Positions 6,339 through 44,464 of a stretch of DNA of 64,000 bases are shown one piece after another. Below the pieces are notes generated by a model. The model searched no databases, had not been told where the DNA came from, and saw only the letters and a program-made list of their open reading frames with translations. A program made the position numbers and the translations under genes. The first letter of the stretch is position 1. The number at the start of each line of letters is the position of its first letter. Source of the DNA: Escherichia coli (GTDB taxonomy: Bacteria; Pseudomonadota; Gammaproteobacteria; Enterobacterales; Enterobacteriaceae); NCBI RefSeq assembly GCF_036507355.1, contig NZ_AP027877.1; one strand, 5' to 3'.

Positions 6339-6412
6339 GCGGGCGTAGTTCAATGGTAGAACGAGAGCTTCCCAAGCTCTATACGAGGGTTCGATTCCCT
6401 TCGCCCGCTCCA
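6339..6412 (+). tRNA. glyU: tRNA-Gly (anticodon CCC)
   Basis: 74-nt sequence GCGGGCGTAGTTCAATGGTAGAACGAGAGCTTCCCAAGCTCTATACGAGGGTTCGATTCCCTTCGCCCGCTCCA with cloverleaf and CCC anticodon. Confidence 0.97.
6390..6412 (+). repeat. attL core: 3' end of glyU (23 bp), direct repeat of 10585-10607
   Basis: TTCGATTCCCTTCGCCCGCTCCA occurs identically at 6390-6412 and 10585-10607. Confidence 0.85.
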
Positions 6413-6546
6413 TGACCTTTCTTAAAGTACTCCAACCTACTGAATCCTAAGGGATACGGCTTTAAGCCTTCCGCTAGTTTTACTCACTGTAACCAACACT
6501 GTAACTAAATTTGTTGAAATAGTGAGCAGACTTAAGATCTCAGTAC

Positions 6547-8178
6547 ATGCTCAACTCAAAAACCTATCTTTATCAGCGCAATGGCGTCTTTTATATCCGC
6601 CTCAGGATGAAGTCCACAGATCGCCTGACCGTTTCACATCCTTCCCATAGCCGTTATAAAATAGCGTCAGTATCACTACGGACTAAGGATAGACGTACAG
6701 CTATGGCTTACTCACGGCAAATCAAGGCAGCACTTAGGGCAATCCATGCAGACAGACCCAACGCCTCCTATGAGGAAATGAGGGAACACCTGAGGGACAT
6801 CGCAGAGTGGGAGTTGTCTACAGGTCGTTCAGACCTCTTCGAGCCAGATATGAGAGATCTATACCGTGACCAGTATGGGGAAGTGGGAGAGAATCTTGTC
6901 CATGCTCTGGCAAGCGAGCCACTGACTATTGACCAGCATCGCTATATTAATGAGGCTCTTAATGTACTCAAGGCCTGCATGAAGCGCATTGAAGCGGGAG
7001 ATAGCCAGCCACTTATAGATTATATAGATGGATTTGATGCTGCTGCTGGGGCTAATGGCCAAGCCTCTGCAACTCTATCTGTTAGTGCTCCCCAAAAAAC
7101 AAGCATTACTGAAGGCAAACACTGCGTAACCGTTGCTTCTCTCTTTGAGCAGTACGAGCAGGAAAACGCCCAGAACTGGAAGCCAGCAACATTACGAGAA
7201 AACAAAGCTTCTCATGCTGCGTTAATCGAAGTTTTTGATTATCTGGGCCTCAATGCTGACGCCAATGTGTTAGCTCGTGCGGATATGCTTAGGGTTCGGG
7301 ATATCCTCCAGCAATTGCCGAAGAATCGTAAGCAGCGTTTCAAAGATGTTCCGTTGGTTGACCTGCTAGGTCGTGAGGATAAAACCGATTGTCTGGATAT
7401 TGTTACCATCAATAATAAATATCTCATTAAGATGGCGGCTGTTTTCAAGTGGGCCGTGCGTAATGACCTGATTAAAAAGAATATGACAGAAGGGCTAGAG
7501 CTTAAGGTTCCCCAGCGTAAAGCCTCTGAGGCGCGTAATGCTTTCTCTACGGAGCAGGTAGGACAACTACTGGCTGCCGCCCAAGTTTACTCACAGAGAC
7601 CTTCTGGTAAGCCGTATCATTATTATGTTACCGCCTTGGCTGCTATCACTGGGGCGAGACTCAATGAAATAGCCCAACTACAGGTCAAAGACGTCAGGAC
7701 CACTGAGGCGGGAACCGTTTATATTCATATCAATGAAGACGATAGTAGTCTACCCGGTAAGAGCATCAAGAACGCTCATAGTGACCGCTGTGTGCCTCTG
7801 GTCGATGGGGCCTATGGTTTTATATTGGCTGACTTTATGAGGTTGGTTGAGACCCGTAGAGGCGCTGATGGTGATGACGCTATGGTGTTCGATGGTCTTC
7901 GCCTCATGAAGAACGGTTACGGTGAGCAGGTGAGTAAATGGTTTAATCGGACGTTGTTGCCTAAAGTCCTCGCAGACCGTAGCGGCTTAGCGTTTCACTC
8001 GTTTAGACATACAGTTGCGACCCAGTTAAAACAACATGGGGTCGAGTTGGCGTATGCACAGGCGATCATGGGGCATAGTTCAGGGTCTATTACTTACGAC
8101 CGTTATGCTAAAGAGGTTGAGGTTGATAGACTGGTCAATGTGATGGCTGATGTTTATAAGGAGGTTGTGGCCCCTTAA
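6547..8178 (+). CDS. tyrosine-type integrase (543 aa, extended N-terminal region)
   Basis: C-terminal catalytic motifs ARLNEI (Arg), HSFRHTVAT (H-x-x-R), GHSSGSITYDRYAK (Tyr); first gene after the tRNA att core. Confidence 0.85.
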   Translation: MLNSKTYLYQRNGVFYIRLRMKSTDRLTVSHPSHSRYKIASVSLRTKDRRTAMAYSRQIKAALRAIHADRPNASYEEMREHLRDIAEWELSTGRSDLFEPDMRDLYRDQYGEVGENLVHALASEPLTIDQHRYINEALNVLKACMKRIEAGDSQPLIDYIDGFDAAAGANGQASATLSVSAPQKTSITEGKHCVTVASLFEQYEQENAQNWKPATLRENKASHAALIEVFDYLGLNADANVLARADMLRVRDILQQLPKNRKQRFKDVPLVDLLGREDKTDCLDIVTINNKYLIKMAAVFKWAVRNDLIKKNMTEGLELKVPQRKASEARNAFSTEQVGQLLAAAQVYSQRPSGKPYHYYVTALAAITGARLNEIAQLQVKDVRTTEAGTVYIHINEDDSSLPGKSIKNAHSDRCVPLVDGAYGFILADFMRLVETRRGADGDDAMVFDGLRLMKNGYGEQVSKWFNRTLLPKVLADRSGLAFHSFRHTVATQLKQHGVELAYAQAIMGHSSGSITYDRYAKEVEVDRLVNVMADVYKEVVAP

Positions 8179-8179
8179 G

Positions 8180-8234
8180 GATGACCATAGGCGATGACCA
8201 TAGGCGATGACCATAGGCGATGACACTTGCTACT
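8180..8234 (+). repeat. tandem 13-bp iterons (GATGACCATAGGC x3 plus a variant GATGACACTTGCTACT)
   Basis: Three perfect head-to-tail copies starting one base after the integrase stop; the variant unit recurs at about 8391-8410. Confidence 0.8.
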
Positions 8235-8293
8235 ATTCCTATGGTCCCCTTTGTGGTCCTATGTGGTCCTGTGTGACCCTTTGTGTGGTCATG
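8235..8293 (+). repeat. cluster of TGGTCC/TGTGGTC short repeats
   Basis: ATTCCTATGGTCCCCTTTGTGGTCCTATGTGGTCCTGTGTGACCCTTTGTGTGGTCATG: about five degenerate copies of one motif. Confidence 0.7.
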
Positions 8294-8330
8294 TTTTGAC
8301 TCATAGTTTTCACTACTTGTCAAGCATATT

Positions 8331-8353
8331 TAATACGACTCACTATAGGGAGA
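8331..8353 (+). promoter_or_regulatory. bacteriophage T7 RNA polymerase promoter (exact 23-bp class III consensus)
   Basis: TAATACGACTCACTATAGGGAGA read directly, predicted +1 G at 8348; followed by a TCTCTCTCTGTCTCTCTC tract. Confidence 0.85.
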
Positions 8354-8584
8354 AGGGACACAAAAAGTTTTCTCTCTCTGTCTCTCTCTATGATGACACT
8401 TGCTACTACTTCAGGTAGCTTTAACTCTAACCGTAACTTATCGCATCCTTTCAGGGGCGGGATGACCAATTACAGACACCAAGCGTTCTACTTAAAATGA
8501 ATGCTTCCTGTGTGCTCTGGGTCAGTCGATAAGTGAATAGCCTTAGACATCATATTAATTATGGTCTCTAACCCCTACAGGGGC

Positions 8585-8729
8585 TTAACTTTAAGTATTA
8601 ACTTATAGTCTACTTAAAGACACAATTAAAGATTAACTTAAAGTATTAAATTATAGATTAATTAAAGACCAATTAAAGAGTAACTTTAAGTATTAACTTA
8701 TAGTCTACTTAAAGACACAATTAAAGATT
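8585..8729 (+). repeat. AT-rich iteron array with two ~48-bp direct repeats (TTAAAGA/TTAAAGAC units)
   Basis: AACTTTAAGTATTAACTTATAGTCTACTTAAAGACACAATTAAAGATT at about 8587-8634 and 8682-8729; preceded by CCCCTACAGGGG at about 8570. Confidence 0.8.
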
Positions 8730-8920
8730 GACTCTAAGGGAATACCTTAAGAGGTGATGATATTCATAATAATCAATCACCAAACCTATAGGTCTCCTCA
8801 AGGCATTACCCAGAAGCTAACTGTATGGCCCTGTATGGTCCTGTACGCCATTCTTTAGGATGCCATGTAGTTTCGTATGGCCTGATGCCTAGCGTGGCTC
8901 AGAGACCCTCCCAGTAGTAA

Positions 8921-8945
8921 ATCAATACGACTTACTAATAGGAGA
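8921..8945 (+). promoter_or_regulatory. degenerate T7-like promoter (putative)
   Basis: CAATACGACTTACTAATAGGAGACA: 18 of 23 positions match the T7 consensus, same orientation, about 230 bp upstream of the 9158 ORF. Confidence 0.45.
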
Positions 8946-9157
8946 CACACTCCGAACCACTCACCACGTGTCTCTCAAAGTTCCACCTCTCGCGCTTCAC
9001 CATACAGTAGCTCCGCACAGCTACGACACAATCATTCATTCAATCTCAAAGTCATTCTGTTTGCATCCTGTTGTCCTGCTGGTCTCCCTTCGCTTGGGGA
9101 CTTTGAGTGGGCCAGTAGGGGGCGGTTTAGTGTGCATATTTAAAAGGTAACCAAGCA

Positions 9158-9721
9158 ATGAACAATAAACATAAACATGCAGGTCATATTATCACTATTG
9201 AAGGCCACAGCTTTAAGTCTAATGAGTCTGGCATGTGGAATCTTACAGAAATATGGAAAATCCTCGGATTACCTAACAATAAGCTACCCTCTCAGTGGCG
9301 CGGCAAGGTAACAAAGAGGCTCACCGACATGCAAAAAATGCACGTCGAGAAGATTGGTATTGAAAGCATAACCTACGCAGACAAACAGGCTACCCTCAAG
9401 TATGCAGGATGGGTCTCTGAAGATTTCGAGGACATGGTCTATGCAGCCTTTGAGGCTATCCTTGAGATGCCTGAAGTTGCCACGGTCGTTGCTAATAAGA
9501 TGGTCGAACTTGGCTATCACGCTGAAGCTGAGCTATTGGAACGTCATAAGGACGACTATAGAGAAGCTATGCAGACCCTTAAAAAGATTGGTAAACGTGT
9601 TGACGGCAGGAAGCCTGAGCGCATCTACAAGGCCGTACTTAACGGTAATCTGACGAAATTTCAAGGGTTATCCATGATTTCTCGCAGCAGTGTCTGGTAC
9701 GCCCGAACAGTGAATCTATGA
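9158..9721 (+). CDS. hypothetical protein, possible KilA-N-like N-terminal domain
   Basis: 187-aa ORF with AAGGTAA upstream; N-terminal IITIEGHSFKSNESGMWNLTEIWKILG...AGWVSEDFEDMVYAAF is reminiscent of KilA-N/APSES-type domains (tentative, from recall). Confidence 0.5.
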   Translation: MNNKHKHAGHIITIEGHSFKSNESGMWNLTEIWKILGLPNNKLPSQWRGKVTKRLTDMQKMHVEKIGIESITYADKQATLKYAGWVSEDFEDMVYAAFEAILEMPEVATVVANKMVELGYHAEAELLERHKDDYREAMQTLKKIGKRVDGRKPERIYKAVLNGNLTKFQGLSMISRSSVWYARTVNL

Positions 9722-9844
9722 TGGCTATCGATCACGATAGATGCCAGCGATCAATTTCAGGTTACCGATCGAAACAAACGATCAGCACGATGGTTGCAAT
9801 CGGATATCATATTGACACTTGTCTGACATCCTGAAGGTATCAAT

Positions 9845-10318
9845 ATGTTTGGGCTTTTTAAGAAAAAGGCAAAAGCGGAAAGGTGTTATGATGTAACACG
9901 CATTCAATACGAGCTGGTTGTAATGTCATCTAAGCTGATAAAAAAACAGACCGATATGTTCAAAGTAATAAAAGGGGAGCGAGAGGAGGCTTTAGGAGAC
10001 CCTTTATTATCAGCAGGGTATATAACGCCATGGGTCATTGGATATTGCACTGGTCTCCTGGATGCAGTGACTCAGACGGAGGCTAACAGGATGGCATTTA
10101 CATCAGAAATGCTTGGGCTTCTTTTTGCTGCAGTTTTCGGTGATGATAAGTCTCTTGAGGCCATGGGAACTTATATAGCCTGTAACGAAGCCTCCTCACC
10201 AGACCATGGATTTCATGTTACGTATGAGCTTTATATGTCTGGTCTAGCGAAAGCGTTTAATGAGGTATGTGAGGATAAACCTGCGATAGGACTTCTGAAC
10301 TATTTAATGCAGGATTGA
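9845..10318 (+). CDS. hypothetical protein (157 aa)
   Basis: ORF with no recognisable motifs; TTGACA at about 9810 upstream; last ORF before attR. Confidence 0.45.
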   Translation: MFGLFKKKAKAERCYDVTRIQYELVVMSSKLIKKQTDMFKVIKGEREEALGDPLLSAGYITPWVIGYCTGLLDAVTQTEANRMAFTSEMLGLLFAAVFGDDKSLEAMGTYIACNEASSPDHGFHVTYELYMSGLAKAFNEVCEDKPAIGLLNYLMQD

Positions 10319-10584
10319 AAATTTCCCACAAAAATCTCAGTGCCTATCTAACAGTAATAACCCTGCAACATTCCCCCGTATACCTCCAGAAGTTATCCAG
10401 AAGCCGAAGTAGGTATCCTGTCATGTATTTGAATCATCAAAGTTGTTCGTTCTATTCCTCTTTAGGGAATATTACAGCCCTACAGCCTTGACCAGAGATC
10501 ACTTGATGTGTAACCATAACTGTAACCAAAAGGATTCATCATCCTTTAAGAAACAATTGGTTAGTGAGTGATTGTCTTCGATAC

Positions 10585-10607
10585 TTCGATTCCCTTCGCC
10601 CGCTCCA
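10585..10607 (+). repeat. attR of the 4.2-kb element (also proximal att of the next islet)
   Basis: 23-bp copy of the glyU 3' end; flanking sequence diverges from the tRNA. Confidence 0.85.
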
Positions 10608-10771
10608 AACTCAAGTCTCCTGAAGTCTACCAAACTCAATTTTTCCTTGATAAATCAGCAGTTATAGCTTTCTATTAGTCTATTGAACTCAATTGTACTC
10701 CCCCAGGGTCAAGCTCAATGTGGGGGTATGGATGGGGGTATAATTGTACCCCCTGCTGAGAGGTACCCCCA

Positions 10772-11998
10772 ATGAAGCTGACTGCTCGTCAGGTTGAAAC
10801 TGCGAAACCCAAAGAGAAGCCCTACAAACTGGCCGATGGTGGTGGGCTTTACCTGCTGGTTAATCCCAACGGTAAAAGATACTGGCGTCTCAAATACCGT
10901 TCGTTAGGTAAAGAGAAGCTGCTCGCTATTGGCGTTTATCCCGATGTTTCTTTAGCTGAGGCCCGAAGTAAGCGTGAGGATGCTAAAAGAACATTAGCGG
11001 CTGGCAACGATCCCTCTCTTGAACGAAAAATTGAGAAACTTAGTCGTCAACAAGACGCTGAAAACTCGTTTGAGGCTATCACACGGGAGTGGTATCAGCG
11101 TCGCTATGACCGCTGGTCTGTCTCCTACCGCGAAGAAATGCTGAGAACCTTTGAGAAAGATGTATTTCCTTATATCGGTCACAGGCCAATCAAAGATATC
11201 AAGCCGATGGAGTTGCTTGCAGTTCTTTCAAAGATAGAAGCACGAGGGGCAACAGAGAAAGTCCGCAAGGTTCGTCAGCGTTGTGGAGAGGTCTGGAAGT
11301 ATGCCGTTGTGACTGGGAGGGCCGAGTACAATCCAGCACCTGATCTAGCCAGCGCCGTGAGTCCTCATGAGAAAGAGCACTATGCTTTTTTAACCCAGGA
11401 TGAATTGCCTGAGTTTCTTCGGACTCTGAACGCCTATGCCGGTAGTGTGCTTGTTAAGATTGCGATGCAATTGCTCATTTTAACAGGAGTAAGGCCAGGG
11501 GAGTTGAGGCAAGCGGAGTGGCAGGAGTTTGATTTTGAGAAAAAGGTTTGGAATGTACCAGCGGAACGTATGAAAATGCGCCGCCCTCATCTTGTTCCAT
11601 TATCAAGCCAGGCAATTGACCTGCTTAATCAACTTAAACCCATAACGGGAGCAGGAGCGTTATTATTCCCAGGACGTAATAATCCTAAGAAACCGATGAG
11701 CGATATGGCATTGACTGTGTTGGTCAGGCGTATCGGCTATGCCGGGCGCGTTACAGGGCATGGATTCCGCCACACGATGAGTACCATTTTGCATGAGCAG
11801 GGATTCAACTCGGCCTGGATTGAGTTACAGCTGGCTCACGTCGATAAGAACTCAATTCGTGGGACGTATAACCATGCTCAATATTTGGAAGGTCGGCGGG
11901 AGATGATGCAGTGGTATGGAGATTTCATCGGTCAAGCAGGCAAATCCGGATCATCGCTAGCTTATGCAGCTATTAGCTTGACTGCTGAATTAGAGTGA
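10772..11998 (+). CDS. P4-type tyrosine integrase
   Basis: 408-aa ORF; N-terminus MKLTARQVETAKPKEKPYKLADGGGLYLLVNPNGKRYWRLKY typical of P4-family integrases; HGFRHT and Y-containing C-terminal box; sits 165 bp after the tRNA-derived repeat. Confidence 0.9.
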   Translation: MKLTARQVETAKPKEKPYKLADGGGLYLLVNPNGKRYWRLKYRSLGKEKLLAIGVYPDVSLAEARSKREDAKRTLAAGNDPSLERKIEKLSRQQDAENSFEAITREWYQRRYDRWSVSYREEMLRTFEKDVFPYIGHRPIKDIKPMELLAVLSKIEARGATEKVRKVRQRCGEVWKYAVVTGRAEYNPAPDLASAVSPHEKEHYAFLTQDELPEFLRTLNAYAGSVLVKIAMQLLILTGVRPGELRQAEWQEFDFEKKVWNVPAERMKMRRPHLVPLSSQAIDLLNQLKPITGAGALLFPGRNNPKKPMSDMALTVLVRRIGYAGRVTGHGFRHTMSTILHEQGFNSAWIELQLAHVDKNSIRGTYNHAQYLEGRREMMQWYGDFIGQAGKSGSSLAYAAISLTAELE

Positions 11999-38231: not shown

Positions 38232-39494
38232 ATGCCACATTCACTGTTCAGCACCGATACCGATCTCACCGCCGAAAATCTGCTGCGTTTGCCCGCTGAA
38301 TTTGGCTGCCCGGTGTGGGTCTACGATGCGCAAATTATTCGTCGGCAGATTGCAGCGCTGAAACAGTTTGATGTGGTGCGCTTCGCGCAGAAAGCCTGTT
38401 CCAATATTCATATTTTGCGCTTAATGCGCGAGCAGGGCGTGAAAGTGGATTCCGTCTCATTGGGGGAAATCGAACGCGCGTTGGCGGCGGGATATAATCC
38501 GCAGACGCATCCCGATGACATTGTTTTTACTGCGGATGTTATCGATCAGGCGACCCTCGAGCGCGTCAGTGAATTGCAAATTCCGGTGAATGCGGGTTCT
38601 GTTGATATGCTCGACCAACTGGGCCAGGTTTCGCCAGGGCATCGGGTATGGCTGCGCGTTAACCCGGGGTTTGGTCACGGACATAGCCAAAAAACCAATA
38701 CCGGTGGCGAAAACAGCAAGCACGGTATCTGGTACACCGATCTGCCCGCCGCACTGGACGTGATACAACGTCATCATCTGCAGCTGGTCGGCATTCACAT
38801 GCACATTGGTTCTGGCGTTGATTATGCCCATCTGGAACAGGTGTGTGGTGCGATGGTGCGTCAGGTCCTCGAATTCGGTCAGGATTTACAGGCTATTTCT
38901 GCGGGCGGTGGGCTTTCTGTTCCTTATCAACAGGGTGAAGAGGCGGTTGATACCGAACATTATTATGGTCTGTGGAATGCCGCGCGTGAGCAAATTGCCC
39001 GCCATTTGGGCCACCCTGTGAAACTGGAAATTGAACCGGGTCGCTTCCTGGTAGCGCAGTCTGGCGTATTAATTACTCAGGTGCGGAGCGTCAAACAAAT
39101 GGGTAGCCGCCACTTTGTGCTTGTTGATGCCGGGTTCAACGATCTGATGCGCCCGGCAATGTACGGTAGTTACCACCATATCAGTGCTCTGGCAGCTGAT
39201 GGTCGTTCTCTGGAACACGCGCCAACGGTGGAAACCGTCGTCGCCGGGCCGTTATGTGAATCGGGCGATGTCTTTACCCAGCAGGAAGGGGGAAATGTCG
39301 AAACCCGCGCCTTGCCGGAAGTGAAGGCGGGTGATTATCTGGTACTGCATGATACAGGGGCATATGGCGCATCAATGTCATCCAACTACAACAGCCGTCC
39401 GCTGTTACCAGAAGTTCTGTTTGATAATGGCCAGGCGCGGTTGATTCGCCGTCGCCAGACCATCGAAGAATTACTGGCGCTGGAATTGCTTTAA
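38232..39494 (+). CDS. lysA: diaminopimelate decarboxylase
   Basis: 420-aa PLP-dependent fold-III decarboxylase. Confidence 0.93.
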   Translation: MPHSLFSTDTDLTAENLLRLPAEFGCPVWVYDAQIIRRQIAALKQFDVVRFAQKACSNIHILRLMREQGVKVDSVSLGEIERALAAGYNPQTHPDDIVFTADVIDQATLERVSELQIPVNAGSVDMLDQLGQVSPGHRVWLRVNPGFGHGHSQKTNTGGENSKHGIWYTDLPAALDVIQRHHLQLVGIHMHIGSGVDYAHLEQVCGAMVRQVLEFGQDLQAISAGGGLSVPYQQGEEAVDTEHYYGLWNAAREQIARHLGHPVKLEIEPGRFLVAQSGVLITQVRSVKQMGSRHFVLVDAGFNDLMRPAMYGSYHHISALAADGRSLEHAPTVETVVAGPLCESGDVFTQQEGGNVETRALPEVKAGDYLVLHDTGAYGASMSSNYNSRPLLPEVLFDNGQARLIRRRQTIEELLALELL

Positions 39495-39500
39495 CTGCGG

Positions 39501-40532
39501 TTAGTCGCTGGTTGCATGATGACTTGCCTCCAGCGACGGAGTTGACACTGAATGGCGACGTACCAGCGTCGGACTAAAGACATTAGTGATTTCCGGGAGA
39601 GGGCGATTATCCGCCAGCGCCAAAGCCAGTTCGGCAGCCTGGGTCGCCATCGTCACGATTGGATAACGCACGGTGGTCAGGCGCGGTCGCACATAGCGTG
39701 ACACCAGCACATCATCAAAGCCAATTAACGAAATCTCACCTGGTACATCAATACCATTATCATTGAGCACGCCCATCGCACCCGCCGCCATTGAATCGTT
39801 ATAACAGGCTACCGCAGTGAAATTTCTTCCTCGTCCCAAAAGCTCGGTCATTGCCTGTTCGCCGCCGCTTTCGTCTGGTTCGCCAAATGTCACCAGCCGG
39901 TCATTGGCCGCAATACCACTTTCAGCAAGGGCATCGTAATACCCTTGCAGACGATCTTCGGCGTCAGAAATAGAGTGGTTAGAGCACAGATAACCAATGC
40001 GGGTATGACCTTGCTGAATTAAATGACGCGTTGCCAGCCAGGCACCGTAACGATCGTCCAGAGCAATACAACGGTTTTCAAAGCCAGGCAGGATACGGTT
40101 GATCAGCACCATACCGGGCATTTGTTTCATTAATGAGGCTAAATCGGCATCCGGGATCATTTTGGCATGGACGACCAACGCAGCACAGCGATGGCGGATC
40201 AGTTGCTCAATAGCCTGACGCTCTTTTTGTTCGTTGTGGTAACCGTTGCCAATCAATAAGAAATTACCGGTGTGATAAGCCACCTGTTCGACCGCTTTCA
40301 CCATTGCACCGAAAAACGGATCGGAAACATCACCAACGACCAGACCGACTGTTTCAGTGGTCTGCTGTGCCAGCGCACGGGCGTTGGCGTTCGGGTGATA
40401 GCTAAGAGACTCCATTGCACTATGCACAGCCAGCCGGGACGCTTCGCTGGCTTTGGGTGAATTATTAATGACGCGGGAAACGGTGGCGACTGAAACGCCT
40501 GCCAGTCGGGCTACATCCTTTATGGTCGCCAT
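39501..40532 (-). CDS. galR: galactose operon repressor GalR (LacI family)
   Basis: 343 aa; N-terminal HTH MATIKDVARLAGVSVATVSRVIN. Confidence 0.92.
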   Translation of the reverse strand: MATIKDVARLAGVSVATVSRVINNSPKASEASRLAVHSAMESLSYHPNANARALAQQTTETVGLVVGDVSDPFFGAMVKAVEQVAYHTGNFLLIGNGYHNEQKERQAIEQLIRHRCAALVVHAKMIPDADLASLMKQMPGMVLINRILPGFENRCIALDDRYGAWLATRHLIQQGHTRIGYLCSNHSISDAEDRLQGYYDALAESGIAANDRLVTFGEPDESGGEQAMTELLGRGRNFTAVACYNDSMAAGAMGVLNDNGIDVPGEISLIGFDDVLVSRYVRPRLTTVRYPIVTMATQAAELALALADNRPLPEITNVFSPTLVRRHSVSTPSLEASHHATSD

Positions 40533-40746
40533 GAAAATACCTTAGTGGGTAAACGCTTACATTCTTTCAGTGTTACGGAAAACGCCCGTTGGTTCAAGGG
40601 GCGGTGTGTTTTCATCAGTGGGAATGTGAGCCAAACGCAAATAAGTAAGACAAAAAAAGAGATTGCAAACCTTTGGTTACACTTTGCGAAACGCTGTTGC
40701 GATTGACCGCTGGTGGCGTTTGGCTTCAGGTTGCTAAAGTGGTGAT

Positions 40747-40828
40747 CCCAGAGGTATTGATAGGTGAAGTCAACTTCGGGTTGAGCACATGAATTACACC
40801 AGCCTGCGCAGATGCGCAGGTTTTTTTT
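40747..40828 (+). ncRNA. omrB: small regulatory RNA OmrB
   Basis: CCCAGAGGTATTGATAGGTGAAGTCAACTTCGGGTTGAGC... ending in the CCTGCGCAGATGCGCAGG-T9 terminator; galR-aas intergenic location. Confidence 0.85.
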
Positions 40829-40943
40829 TGCCGGTCATCAATCTGTAACAGTAACCGACAATTTACACACCTCGTTGCATTTCCCTTCATTCCTTTGCGT
40901 TTTCTCGCTGGCGAAGAGTCGTCGTGCAGACCACAATCAAGAT

Positions 40944-41031
40944 CCCAGAGGTATTGATTGGTGAGATTATTCGGTACGCTCTTCGTACCCTGTCTCTTGC
41001 ACCAACCTGCGCGGATGCGCAGGTTTTTTTT
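40944..41031 (+). ncRNA. omrA: small regulatory RNA OmrA
   Basis: CCCAGAGGTATTGATTGGTGAGATTATTCGGTACGCTCTTCGTACC... with CCTGCGCGGATGCGCAGG-T8 terminator; tandem with omrB and sharing the 5' seed. Confidence 0.85.
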
Positions 41032-41097
41032 CGCACCTAATTTACTGTCGCTCGCGTTCTTTATCTCGTGTAATCTCCCTCCATTCGCTTTTACTGA

Positions 41098-44464
<3,367 letters not shown>

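Follow-up and report, generated by a model that had tools for sequence, protein, structure and literature searches.

A 4.2-kb island in the 3′ end of glyU

The window, that is, the whole 64-kb stretch of Escherichia coli DNA that was analysed, contains a discrete island of 4,195 bp (6413-10607), which is inserted in the 3′ end of the tRNA-Gly gene glyU and bounded by an exact 23-bp core repeat (Table 1). The attL copy of this core constitutes the final 23 bp of glyU. In strain CFSAN061769 the site is empty, with the flank directly abutting the tRNA end, and the same junction-spanning arrangement was found in 3,427 of 5,426 E. coli genomes. Besides the integrase, the island encodes a KilA-N-like DNA-binding protein and small unassigned ORFs.

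The first-pass annotation had suggested that the island can still recombine. The intact catalytic motifs, the exact core, the intact arms, and the precise empty sites in most E. coli speak for such competence; against it, no excisionase-like gene was recognised among the island ORFs in a Pfam search, and no excised (attP) junction was present in the viral or metagenome contigs searched. Taken together, the sequence is consistent with an island that is still recombination-competent.

Table 1 Features of the glyU island and its att sites in the window.
Feature	Position	Strand	Basis
tRNA-Gly(CCC) gene (glyU), integration target	6339..6412	+	ARAGORN, Rfam tRNA match, RefSeq annotation of relatives
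attL core, left copy of exact 23-bp direct repeat TTCGATTCCCTTCGCCCGCTCCA	6390..6412	+	100% identical to 10585-10607
Conserved attL-arm blocks TTTCTTAAAG (6418-6427) and TGAATCC (6441-6447), candidate accessory/bending sites	6418..6447	+	20-arm conservation, inverted repeat, IHF scan
attL-side (integrase-proximal) candidate arm-type pair TGTAACCA-N4-TGTAACTA (units 6488-6495 and 6500-6507)	6488..6507	+	Motif counts, weight matrix, conservation
Tyrosine integrase, 543 aa	6547..8178	+	ORF, Pfam, AlphaFold2 N-terminus model, motif alignment
Exact T7 class III promoter consensus TAATACGACTCACTATAGGGAGA, outside att site	8331..8353	+	0 mismatches, 0 expected; identical to T7 late promoters
Conserved attR-arm start: palindrome TTCTATTCCTCTTTAGGGAATA (10450-10471) and block TTGACC (10488-10493)	10450..10493	+	15 attR arms
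attR-side candidate arm-type pair TGTAACCA-N4-TGTAACCA (units 10509-10516 and 10521-10528)	10509..10528	+	Motif counts, weight matrix, conservation
Conserved attR-arm blocks GGATTCA (10532-10538), CTTTAAGAAA (10544-10553), and AAACAA-N4-TTAG (10551-10564)	10532..10564	+	Conservation, IHF scan
attR core, right copy of 23-bp direct repeat TTCGATTCCCTTCGCCCGCTCCA	10585..10607	+	Repeat search

The island integrase and its N-terminal domain

The integrase comprises an N-terminal DUF6538-type domain (approximately aa 1-70), an extended helical region in the middle, and a catalytic domain (aa 334-522), and it matches the Pfam Phage_integrase profile with an E value of 2e-18. Its tyrosine recombinase signature of Arg, His-x-x-Arg, His/Trp, and Tyr is complete: the motifs TGARLNE, HSFRHT, GHSS, and YDRYAK align to those of Tn1549 Int and XerA, and the catalytic motifs do not vary among 27 homologues. 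Of the solved full-length structures, Tn1549 Int (6EN0, E 4e-4) is the closest match, with the similarity lying in the catalytic region only.

Against PF20172 (DUF6538), the protein scores 17.8 bits, or 19.7 bits on the trimmed domain, which is below the gathering threshold of 27. Of 23 aligned N-terminal sequences, however, 22 match Pfam DUF6538 at E ≤ 1 (best 1.3e-6), and most relatives at 77-81% identity carry a precomputed PF20172 assignment. Judged by homology, the window integrase is a divergent DUF6538 member, though it falls under the curated cut-off. The AlphaFold2 model of the N-terminus (pLDDT 77) predicts three strands (residues 4-11, 14-22, and 37-43) followed by a helix (49-69). 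Aligned by hhalign, the DUF6538 domain lies in register with the arm-binding domain of lambda Int over 43 columns at 30% identity, a match that is not significant; fold and profile comparisons of the N-terminal domain with known arm-binding domains likewise gave no significant match.

Tandem pairs confined to the two arms

The first-pass annotation had reported the repeats CTGTAACCAACACTGTAAC at 6487-6505 and GTGTAACCATAACTGTAACCAAAAG at 10508-10532, all on the plus strand, and both the sequences and the coordinates proved to be correct. In each arm only two units were detected, of the form TGTAAC(C/T)A, lying 12 bp apart from start to start on the strand of the integrase gene and differing in sequence from the core. 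The first unit of the attL pair begins 75 bp past the core end, and the pair ends approximately 40 bp before the integrase ATG; on the other side, the second unit of the attR pair ends 56 bp short of the core. Aligned with each other, the blocks form a direct repeat of 22 nt in which 19 positions are identical.

The octamer TGTAACCA occurs five times in the window against 1.5 expected, a count reached in one of 100 shuffles, and three of the five copies lie inside the two blocks. The hexamer by itself showed no enrichment across the window. Furthermore, the layout TGTRAC-N6-TGTRAC is present exactly twice in the 64 kb, both times in the arms, with an expectation of 0.00 from 100 shuffles. In a weight-matrix scan of the window, the four arm units were the top matches (15-17 bits), and only two other sites, each isolated, reached 15 bits. 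A similar density of the motif across the window, which the annotation had named as evidence against its reading, was thus not observed; the tandem layout is confined to the arms.

Conservation of the pairs among enterobacterial relatives

To compare the arms, we collected 20 non-identical attL and 15 attR sequences from E. coli and from 16 loci in other genera (Rouxiella, Klebsiella, Lonsdalea, Citrobacter, Buttiauxella, Shimwellia, Enterobacter, Kluyvera, Proteus, Pectobacterium, Edaphovirga, and Serratia), whose integrases are 64-85% identical. The first attL unit is invariant in all 20 arms, while the spacers vary, and the attL pair is the best-conserved 6+6 window at its spacing (rank 1 of 107); because the enteric attL arms are about 90% conserved throughout, with several other blocks equally conserved, the resolution of such a footprint is limited there. 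The attR pair ranks second among 132 windows at its spacing. On this side, homology is limited to roughly the last 130 bp before the core, upstream of which the relatives carry unrelated cargo.

In 15 of 17 attL arms the pair lies 75 bp from the core, the exceptions being Proteus with 54 bp (a difference of 21) and C. braakii with 73 bp; in the attR arms the distance is either 52-53 or 64-65 bp (a difference of 12). This comparison indicates that the pairs, their 12-bp period, and their helical phase to the core are kept across more than 12 enterobacterial genera. The integrase is the sole gene common to all the compared elements, and the cargo is wholly different between relatives that keep the pairs.

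A constant layout with lineage-specific words

Tandem units were also found in more distant integrase lineages, for most of which the comparison covers the integrase-proximal arm only. At the integrase 5′ end, with a period of 10-12 bp, lineage L026 carries GGTAACCT twice, L030 carries TGTCACCAG three times, and L038 and L039/L040 carry CTGTTAGA(A) twice; in distant lineages the tandem pair overlaps the 5′ end of the integrase ORF. Marine elements (L027-L029) have TGTTAGAAA at both ends, all four copies in 13.5 kb being in the arms and on one strand, and in one marine element the lineage motif flanks the integrase-proximal junction on both sides.

A comparable arrangement exists in the phage vB_PsyP_3MF5, whose integrase is a full-length homologue (31% identity, with 98% of the query covered). 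In the region that precedes the integrase gene, TGTTAGAA occurs as three tandem units, one single unit, and two tandem units, and in the contiguous candidate attP these units lie on both sides of the integrase-proximal junction. Two further copies are located in each terminal repeat. All 11 copies in the 41.6-kb genome are on one strand, against approximately 1.3 expected. Across six further lineages and this phage, the tandem layout thus appears constant while the word changes with the integrase lineage.

These data bear on whether the similarity of the blocks has any function at all. The units are short, their hexamer shows no enrichment over the window, and the enteric attL arms resemble one another along their whole length, all of which would fit chance resemblance or neutral shared ancestry. 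We nevertheless disfavour this explanation as the least probable one, given the zero expectation for the tandem layout, the conservation of the units amid varying spacers and neighbouring columns, and the recurrence of the layout with different words in the other lineages and the phage.

The integrase as the probable ligand of the pairs

The first-pass proposal that the repeats are candidate arm-type integrase sites is supported by the conservation of the units, their phased distances, the lineage-linked change of the motif, and the integrase being the only common gene. Given that the pairs stay at fixed distances and in helical phase although cargo and spacers differ, we consider that the TGTAAC(C) pairs probably serve the heterobivalent tyrosine integrase of the island as its arm-type binding sites.

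Other conserved blocks accompany the pairs. The attL-arm blocks TTTCTTAAAG and TGAATCC form inverted repeats with CTTTAAGAAA and GGATTCA of the attR arm. A scan of the arms gave no strict IHF consensus; one-mismatch candidates lie within conserved blocks at 10551 (plus strand) and at 6433-6445 (minus strand). The former, AAACAA-N4-TTAG, is conserved at the positions that the consensus specifies and is a candidate bending site between the attR pair and the core; the inverted-repeat and IHF-like blocks of the attL arm are candidate accessory or bending sites.

Lambda-type arms also hold Xis, IHF, and Fis sites, and the presence here of several further conserved blocks together with an island-encoded KilA-N-like DNA-binding protein and small ORFs would be compatible with pairs that bind an accessory protein, either an element-encoded recombination directionality factor or a host nucleoid protein, rather than the integrase. 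This seems unlikely to us, since no accessory gene is common to the family and the cargo differs completely where the pairs are kept. As for a host factor, the motif is unlike the IHF consensus and tracks the integrase lineage from enterobacteria to marine bacteria and Pseudomonas phages.

The position of the proximal pair, so close to the integrase start codon and overlapping the ORF in distant lineages, could instead mean that it is only an operator or promoter element of the integrase gene, the attR pair being a relic of arm duplication without a role in recombination. We regard this as rather improbable: the distal pair lies more than 4 kb from the integrase gene and is equally conserved and phased to the core, and a simple sigma-70 scan gave no promoter over either block. 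Moreover, an operator role is compatible with an arm-site role and not an alternative to it.

Under the arm-site reading, the catalytic/core-binding part of the integrase would bind the glyU-derived core, and we infer that the N-terminal DUF6538 domain, with its predicted three-stranded sheet and helix, binds the TGTAACC units. Excision would yield a circle with the following order: palindrome, TTGACC, TGTAACCA-N4-TGTAACCA, GGATTCA, CTTTAAGAAA with the IHF-like block, core, TTTCTTAAAG, TGAATCC, GGC-N5-GCC, TGTAACCA-N4-TGTAACTA, and the integrase gene. The integrase could then bridge arm and core sites, aided by bends at the inverted-repeat/IHF-like blocks, and the resulting intasome would make integration into glyU and excision from attL/attR efficient and directional. 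Since some 40 bp separate the proximal pair from the start codon, and since in distant relatives the pair overlaps the ORF 5′ end, occupancy of this pair may also autoregulate the integrase gene.

Comparison with known integration systems

The arm sites appear to be a further case of the known lambda-type (heterobivalent) att layout. As in lambda Int/attP (P1, P2, and P′1-P′3), each arm has, at a distance of tens of bp from the core, short tandem repeats that differ from it in sequence and are spaced by roughly one helical turn; bending sites (here candidates) lie between arm sites and core, and the integrase-proximal sites adjoin the integrase gene. The integrase likewise has an extra N-terminal domain, predicted here as three strands and a helix. 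Unlike that of lambda Int, however, this domain is the uncharacterised DUF6538, with no significant sequence or fold match to the lambda N-domain, and at 543 aa, some 250 of them in a helical region, the protein is much longer. The island also differs in having 2+2 detectable units, all direct, no recognised xis, and a tRNA 3′ end as its target.

Integrases of the Tn916/Tn1549 family use a small N-terminal domain, consisting of a sheet and a helix, to bind direct repeats in the two arms. The island has candidate arm-type direct repeats near both ends, and Tn1549 Int is, as noted, the closest solved full-length match of its integrase, but the N-terminal domains are not detectably related; furthermore, the island is a 4.2-kb tRNA-specific islet, unlike the conjugative transposons of the Tn916 type, which have Xis and show low target specificity.

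P4-type island integrases (Arm-DNA-bind_3/DUF4102) resemble the present one in inserting at tRNA 3′ ends and in having paired repeats just upstream of the integrase gene. One of them, with a bona fide Arm-DNA-bind_3 domain, is encoded in the same window (10772-11998) and preceded by GGGGGTA four times at 10722-10770. The two types differ in N-terminal domain family, motif, and size class, and beyond the catalytic fold no relationship between the integrases is detectable. Pairs of their own, spaced by 12 bp and located 55-80 bp before the core, are also present at the ends of unrelated elements in glyU arrays.

The integrases of temperate T7-subfamily phages (Pseudomonas phage vB_PsyP_3MF5, Warsawvirus) are full-length homologues, with the same arm layout in the candidate attP. 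The DUF6538 integrase family, common to T7-like phages, is unstudied, although its mechanism would itself be ordinary. In contrast to the island, 3MF5 is a complete virus of 41.6 kb that encodes an RNA polymerase and has a different motif; the E. coli island lacks polymerase, structural, and replication genes, and its phage-type promoters face away from the integrase gene.

Phage-type promoters and island cargo

The island is more unusual than its arm sites, in that it carries exact T7-type promoters and no polymerase gene. The promoter at 8331..8353 is directed at the KilA-N-like ORF, a 157-aa ORF, and the attR arm. Relatives carry T7-, K11-, and T3-like promoters, also without a polymerase gene, while no T7-type promoter was detectable in the relatives L002, L006, and L007.

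Transcripts from such a promoter would run through the attR pair, and two more motif copies lie in each 3MF5 terminal repeat, so that the repeats might serve a phage-linked function (packaging, replication, or sensing of a T7-like helper) instead of site-specific recombination. This appears very improbable, since the T7 similarity of the island is confined to the promoter, with nothing matching T7 ends or the concatemer junction, and since the pairs invariably accompany the att core and the integrase gene, even in the three relatives without a detectable T7-type promoter. The non-coding region of the island had no match in the phage genome collection. No replication or packaging domains were found in the island ORFs, which is weak evidence of the absence of such signals. 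As regards the phage satellite class, the island has the promoter consensus without a polymerase gene as a sequence feature, and packaging signals, capsid-redirecting genes, and a replication module were not found, which again is weak evidence.

We tentatively suggest, with somewhat less than even confidence, that the arm sites and the integrase form the mobility module of undescribed, widespread small tRNA-borne islands that respond to T7-group phages. If so, such islands would bear promoters read by single-subunit RNA polymerases of those phages that are relevant locally (T7, K11-type, or T3-like), and the polymerase of an infecting phage would turn on the island cargo and transcribe through the attR arm, resulting in an inducible defence or a satellite-like mobilisation. 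DUF6538 would then represent a new class of arm-binding domain reading TGT(A/T/C)A(C/G)-type words. Many islands of the family carry the anti-T7 RNase RAZR (PD-T7-4).

The probable arm-type repeat pairs of the glyU island

The DNA is E. coli chromosome, in which the 3'-terminal 23 bp of a tRNA-Gly(CCC) gene recur exactly downstream, and this recurrence sets the limits of a 4,195-bp insertion (see the table). The tRNA was the sole family matched in an Rfam scan of the island. Directly 3' of attR lies another island, which has a P4-type integrase; therefore, glyU holds an array of elements. The far end of the P4-type island could not be located, as the window contains neither a third copy of the glyU core nor the canonical right flank.

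The first-pass annotation had proposed arm-type integrase binding sites just inside both ends of the insertion, and its repeat sequences and positions were matched exactly on re-reading. Each block consists of two tandem TGTAAC(C/T)A units with a 12-bp period, in the orientation of the tRNA and integrase genes; the attL pair begins 75 bp past the core, the attR pair stops 56 bp short of it, and an alignment of the blocks has 19 identities in 22 nt. In the window, TGTAACCA occurred five times versus 1.5 expected, and the bare hexamer showed no enrichment. The tandem TGTRAC-N6-TGTRAC was restricted to the two arms (0.00 expected), and a weight-matrix scan of the window placed the four arm units on top, besides two isolated sites elsewhere. 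Thus, the rest of the window does not have the motif at a comparable density, and the first proposal held on this point. A simple scan revealed no sigma-70 promoter over the repeats.

Coordinates of features in the window and in related loci (L numbers)
Feature	Coordinates	Remarks
tRNA-Gly(CCC)	6339-6412	follows a LysM/M23 gene, which RefSeq annotates as actS (ygeR) in relatives
Core repeat TTCGATTCCCTTCGCCCGCTCCA	6390-6412; 10585-10607	
Insertion	6413-10607	
Candidate arm-type pairs	6488-6507 (attL); 10509-10528 (attR)	
Tyrosine integrase	6547-8178	543 aa
Non-coding DNA rich in repeats	8179-9157	~980 bp, between integrase and KilA-N-like ORF
GATGACCATAGGC array	8180-8224	3.5 tandem copies
TGTGGTCC/TGTATGGCC	8239-8285; 8821-8845	10-bp repeats, non-coding
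T7 class III promoter TAATACGACTCACTATAGGGAGA	8331-8353 (+)	exact, 23 bp
AT-rich 48-bp unit	8585-8738	3.2 copies, many TTAAAG words
Second promoter copy	8923-8945 (+)	degenerate, 592 bp downstream
Hairpin block	9041-9140 (+)	~90 nt, non-coding
KilA-N-like ORF	9158-9721	sub-threshold Pfam match; KilA-N annotation in relatives
157-aa ORF		within insertion, no family match
Palindrome TTCTATTCC-N4-GGGAATA	10450-10471	start of attR-arm homology
GGGGGTA	10722, 10734 (direct); 10747, 10764 (inverted)	just 5' of P4-type integrase gene
P4-type integrase	10772-11998	408 aa; Arm-DNA-bind_3, Phage_int_M and catalytic domains
RAZR gene	L001 10745-11377; L003 4759-5388; L004 4761-5390; L009 about 6397-7030	
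Upstream elements in glyU arrays	L010 8750-8850; L014 8770-8866; L015 8760-8866; L021 8760-8860	
Marine element	L027 1770-11661	metagenome contig; also L028, L029
CCAAAAGTCCTCACTAAAAGGAG in L027	10022; 10638; 5047	T3-like promoter type; third copy weaker
Repeats read as N-terminal extensions	L027 1990-2040; L030 105-170	proteins P0134-P0165
vB_PsyP_3MF5 (L041)	39455-41608; 138-155	NC_054890

Conservation of the arms across E. coli and other genera

Among 5,426 complete E. coli genomes, 384 had a match and 35 had 80% or more of the island; about 278 carried a version with an integrase only ~82% identical in DNA and with different cargo. In a further 3,427 E. coli genomes glyU and the right flank were found together, and in the one empty site that was read the flank joins the tRNA end exactly as it joins attR in occupied genomes. 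The island is polymorphic in E. coli. A cross-genus scan with one genome per species added 16 loci with an integrase 64-85% identical (in Rouxiella, Klebsiella, Lonsdalea, Citrobacter, Buttiauxella, Shimwellia, Enterobacter, Kluyvera, Proteus, Pectobacterium, Edaphovirga and Serratia), nearly all of them at tRNA-Gly(CCC).

The sequence layout of the arms is conserved among these relatives, as compared in 20 distinct attL and 15 distinct attR arms. Unit 1, TGTAACC, was invariant in the attL arms; in both sets unit 2 reads TGTrAC and the 12-bp period is constant, with variable spacers. Ranked among all 6+6 column windows of the same spacing, the motif pair came 1/107 in attL and 2/132 in attR. 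The attR homology begins ~130 bp before the core, with unrelated cargo upstream, and the core-to-pair distances fall into classes 12 or 21 bp apart, that is, whole helical turns. Chance similarity of the blocks is excluded by the layout statistics and by the recurrence of the layout. The palindrome at the start of the attR-arm homology, kept in most of the 15 arms, may serve for dimer binding or as a transcript hairpin.

Four loci with a degenerate core and no tRNA before the integrase (L010, L014, L015 and L021), considered as self-junctions, proved instead to be glyU arrays of other genera with unrelated elements upstream of the integrase. These upstream elements end in their own 12-bp-spaced pair, 55-80 bp before the degenerate core, with the words ATGTGTATAGGA, TGTATAG and GGGGGTA (two copies each), which suggests that the arm layout is common among tRNA-Gly islands.

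The repeat word changes with the integrase lineage

An exhaustive search that used no profile, with the first 143 integrase residues as query, reached relatives down to ~31-41% identity. Wherever DNA could be fetched, a different word formed a tandem pair before or overlapping the integrase 5' end: GGTAACCT twice with a third unit near the core (L026, 12-bp period), TGTCACCAG three times (L030, 12 and 24 bp), CTGTTAGAAA twice (L038, 11 bp), CTGTTAGA twice (L039/L040, 10 bp) and TGTTAGAAA twice (L027-L029, 11 bp). The last word also stands at the far end of its element, which is marine, 9.5 kb long and flanked by a 178-nt repeat (71% identical); the two arms contain all four exact copies in 13.5 kb, on one strand. 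That the repeats are binding sites of an accessory protein is unlikely, given that the word follows the integrase lineage across very different hosts and that no accessory gene is common to the family.

The insertion site of the marine element is the 3' end of an sdhA-like gene; the element encodes a Bro-N protein, an HNH protein and a 1,342-aa SLT-domain protein, which we take to resemble T7-type internal virion proteins; it also contains two good copies and a weaker third of CCAAAAGTCCTCACTAAAAGGAG.

Many database integrases of the DUF6538-type family begin with odd N-terminal "extensions" that are translations of such repeats, which explains them. By direct reading, PVRNLLE is the translation of CCTGTTAGAAATCTGTTAGAA and HQRCHQRCHQR that of the TGTCACCAG array; PVTSAVTS and GTNLLQ were assigned by back-translation only. 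Either the gene calls begin too early, or the arm sites truly overlap the 5' coding sequence.

The integrase family was also found in T7-subfamily phages. Pseudomonas phage vB_PsyP_3MF5 (Autographiviridae, Studiervirinae) encodes a full-length homologue at its right genome end, and 5' of this gene come first three TGTTAGAA units in tandem, then a single one, and then another tandem two at the integrase 5' end. The 41.6-kb genome has 11 copies of TGTTAGAA, all on one strand (~1.3 expected); besides the six around this candidate attP, in which both arms would be expected to be contiguous, each terminal repeat holds two. No description of DUF6538 or of a 3MF5 attP was found in the literature. The same integrase family occurs in phTUNSm, phTUNSv and vB_PaeM-G11.

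The integrase and a proposed att mechanism

Pfam recognized only the catalytic domain of the window integrase (aa 334-522), where four motifs that do not vary within the family (TGARLNE, HSFRHT, GHSS and YDRYAK) line up with the catalytic residues of Tn1549 Int and XerA. The N terminus bears the signature Y-x-Y-x-R-x-G-x-Y-Y-x-R-x-R, a variable loop and S-L-R-T-x-D-R-x-x-A-M. The uncharacterised Pfam family DUF6538 was matched by 22 of 23 signature-bearing N-terminal sequences; the window integrase scored under the Pfam cut-off. An AlphaFold2 model of residues 1-143 (pLDDT 77) shows three strands and a helix, with more helices after them; the full-length model (pLDDT 51.6) was too poor for fold assignment. 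Three strands plus a helix is the topology of the arm-binding domains of lambda Int and Tn916 Int. Fold and profile comparisons of the N terminus with such domains were not significant, and for this reason the DUF6538 domain is proposed only as a putative arm-binding domain.

The att architecture is of the lambda type, here in an uncharacterised integrase family. We infer that the integrase binds the repeats and bridges arm and core, and that the DNA between them is bent. Its C-terminal part would bind the glyU-derived core and its N-terminal domain the TGTAACC units, and other conserved arm blocks may be bending or accessory-protein sites that bring the arms to the core. Candidates are the inverted pairs CTTTAAGAAA/TTTCTTAAAG and GGATTCA/TGAATCC, roughly symmetric about the core, and a conserved IHF-like block, AAACAA-N4-TTAG, with one mismatch; the arms hold no strict IHF consensus, only one-mismatch candidates. 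Because the proximal pair ends ~40 bp before the integrase ATG, it may double as an operator. A pure operator role would leave the distal pair unexplained.

The window island fits an element that is functional or recently functional: its integrase motifs are intact, its core is exact, both arms have consensus-grade units, copies 99.6% identical occur in differing array contexts in strains of water, human and pig origin, and empty sites are precise. Some relatives look disabled: in L003 an IS3 is inserted between pair and core, and in L007 and L012 the attR units are degenerate and the core identity is shortened. No excisionase gene was recognized among the island ORFs, and searches of viral and metagenome contigs with exact and degenerate patterns found no excised junction (attP). 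The relatives in IMG/VR are not virion DNA; they were predicted as prophages in the genomes of isolates.

The repeats alone are a modest gain. The att architecture of this integrase family is now concrete and testable (core, two phased tandem pairs and inverted accessory blocks), and it yields a functional prediction for DUF6538, namely arm-type DNA binding to TGTAACC, or to TGTTAGAA in other lineages.

T7-type promoters, RAZR and the non-coding region

The surroundings are more unusual than the att architecture. Downstream of the integrase gene in the island are an exact T7 class III promoter and a degenerate second copy; an RNA polymerase gene is absent from the island and its relatives. Phage-type promoters were also found in L001, L003-L005, L009, L015, L017-L019, L022, L031 and L035. 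Those of Klebsiella and one E. coli include the K11 type, AATTAGGGCACACTATAGGGAGA, and Kluyvera and Proteus have a T3-like form, TAATTAACCCACACTATAGGGAGA; some relatives combine several types or have three tandem exact T7 copies. All face cargo and attR, away from the integrase gene. We found no paper on native T7-type promoters in this island.

In most relatives a DUF4145 protein (PADLOC PD-T7-4, E 8e-99) directly follows the integrase, often overlapping its stop codon, and the phage promoters come immediately after this gene. The protein found beside the integrase in many relatives is RAZR (PMC9519451; PMC13017515), a HEPN RNase whose activation by T7 and T3 portal proteins has been reported. 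The window island lacks RAZR (8179-8330) and has the GATGACCATAGGC array instead. The wider value lies in what is mobilised: the integrase/att module moves this anti-T7 gene among Enterobacterales, adjoins exact T7-type promoters and is common to temperate T7-like phages. Defining the att sites is a first step to learning whether infection by T7-group phages induces or mobilises such islands. A phage-linked role of the repeats has no sequence support besides the promoters.

The non-coding repeat arrangement, which includes the 10-bp repeats and the AT-rich array, is superficially like the T7 end arrays or an origin, with the promoter as the only detectable T7 similarity. Mimicry of T7 genome ends or a concatemer junction by this region was dropped, because BLAST against T7 returned the promoter only and a phage genome collection gave no match. 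The hairpin block, which comes immediately before the next gene's ribosome-binding site and start codon, is kept in almost all relatives, Proteus included, whatever gene comes next. It has no Rfam entry; RNAalifold predicted a long hairpin of 30 pairs (-31.4 kcal/mol) with weak covariation, one pair being altered on both sides. The block may act as a leader or, in transcripts made by a phage polymerase, as a processing site of the RNase III type.
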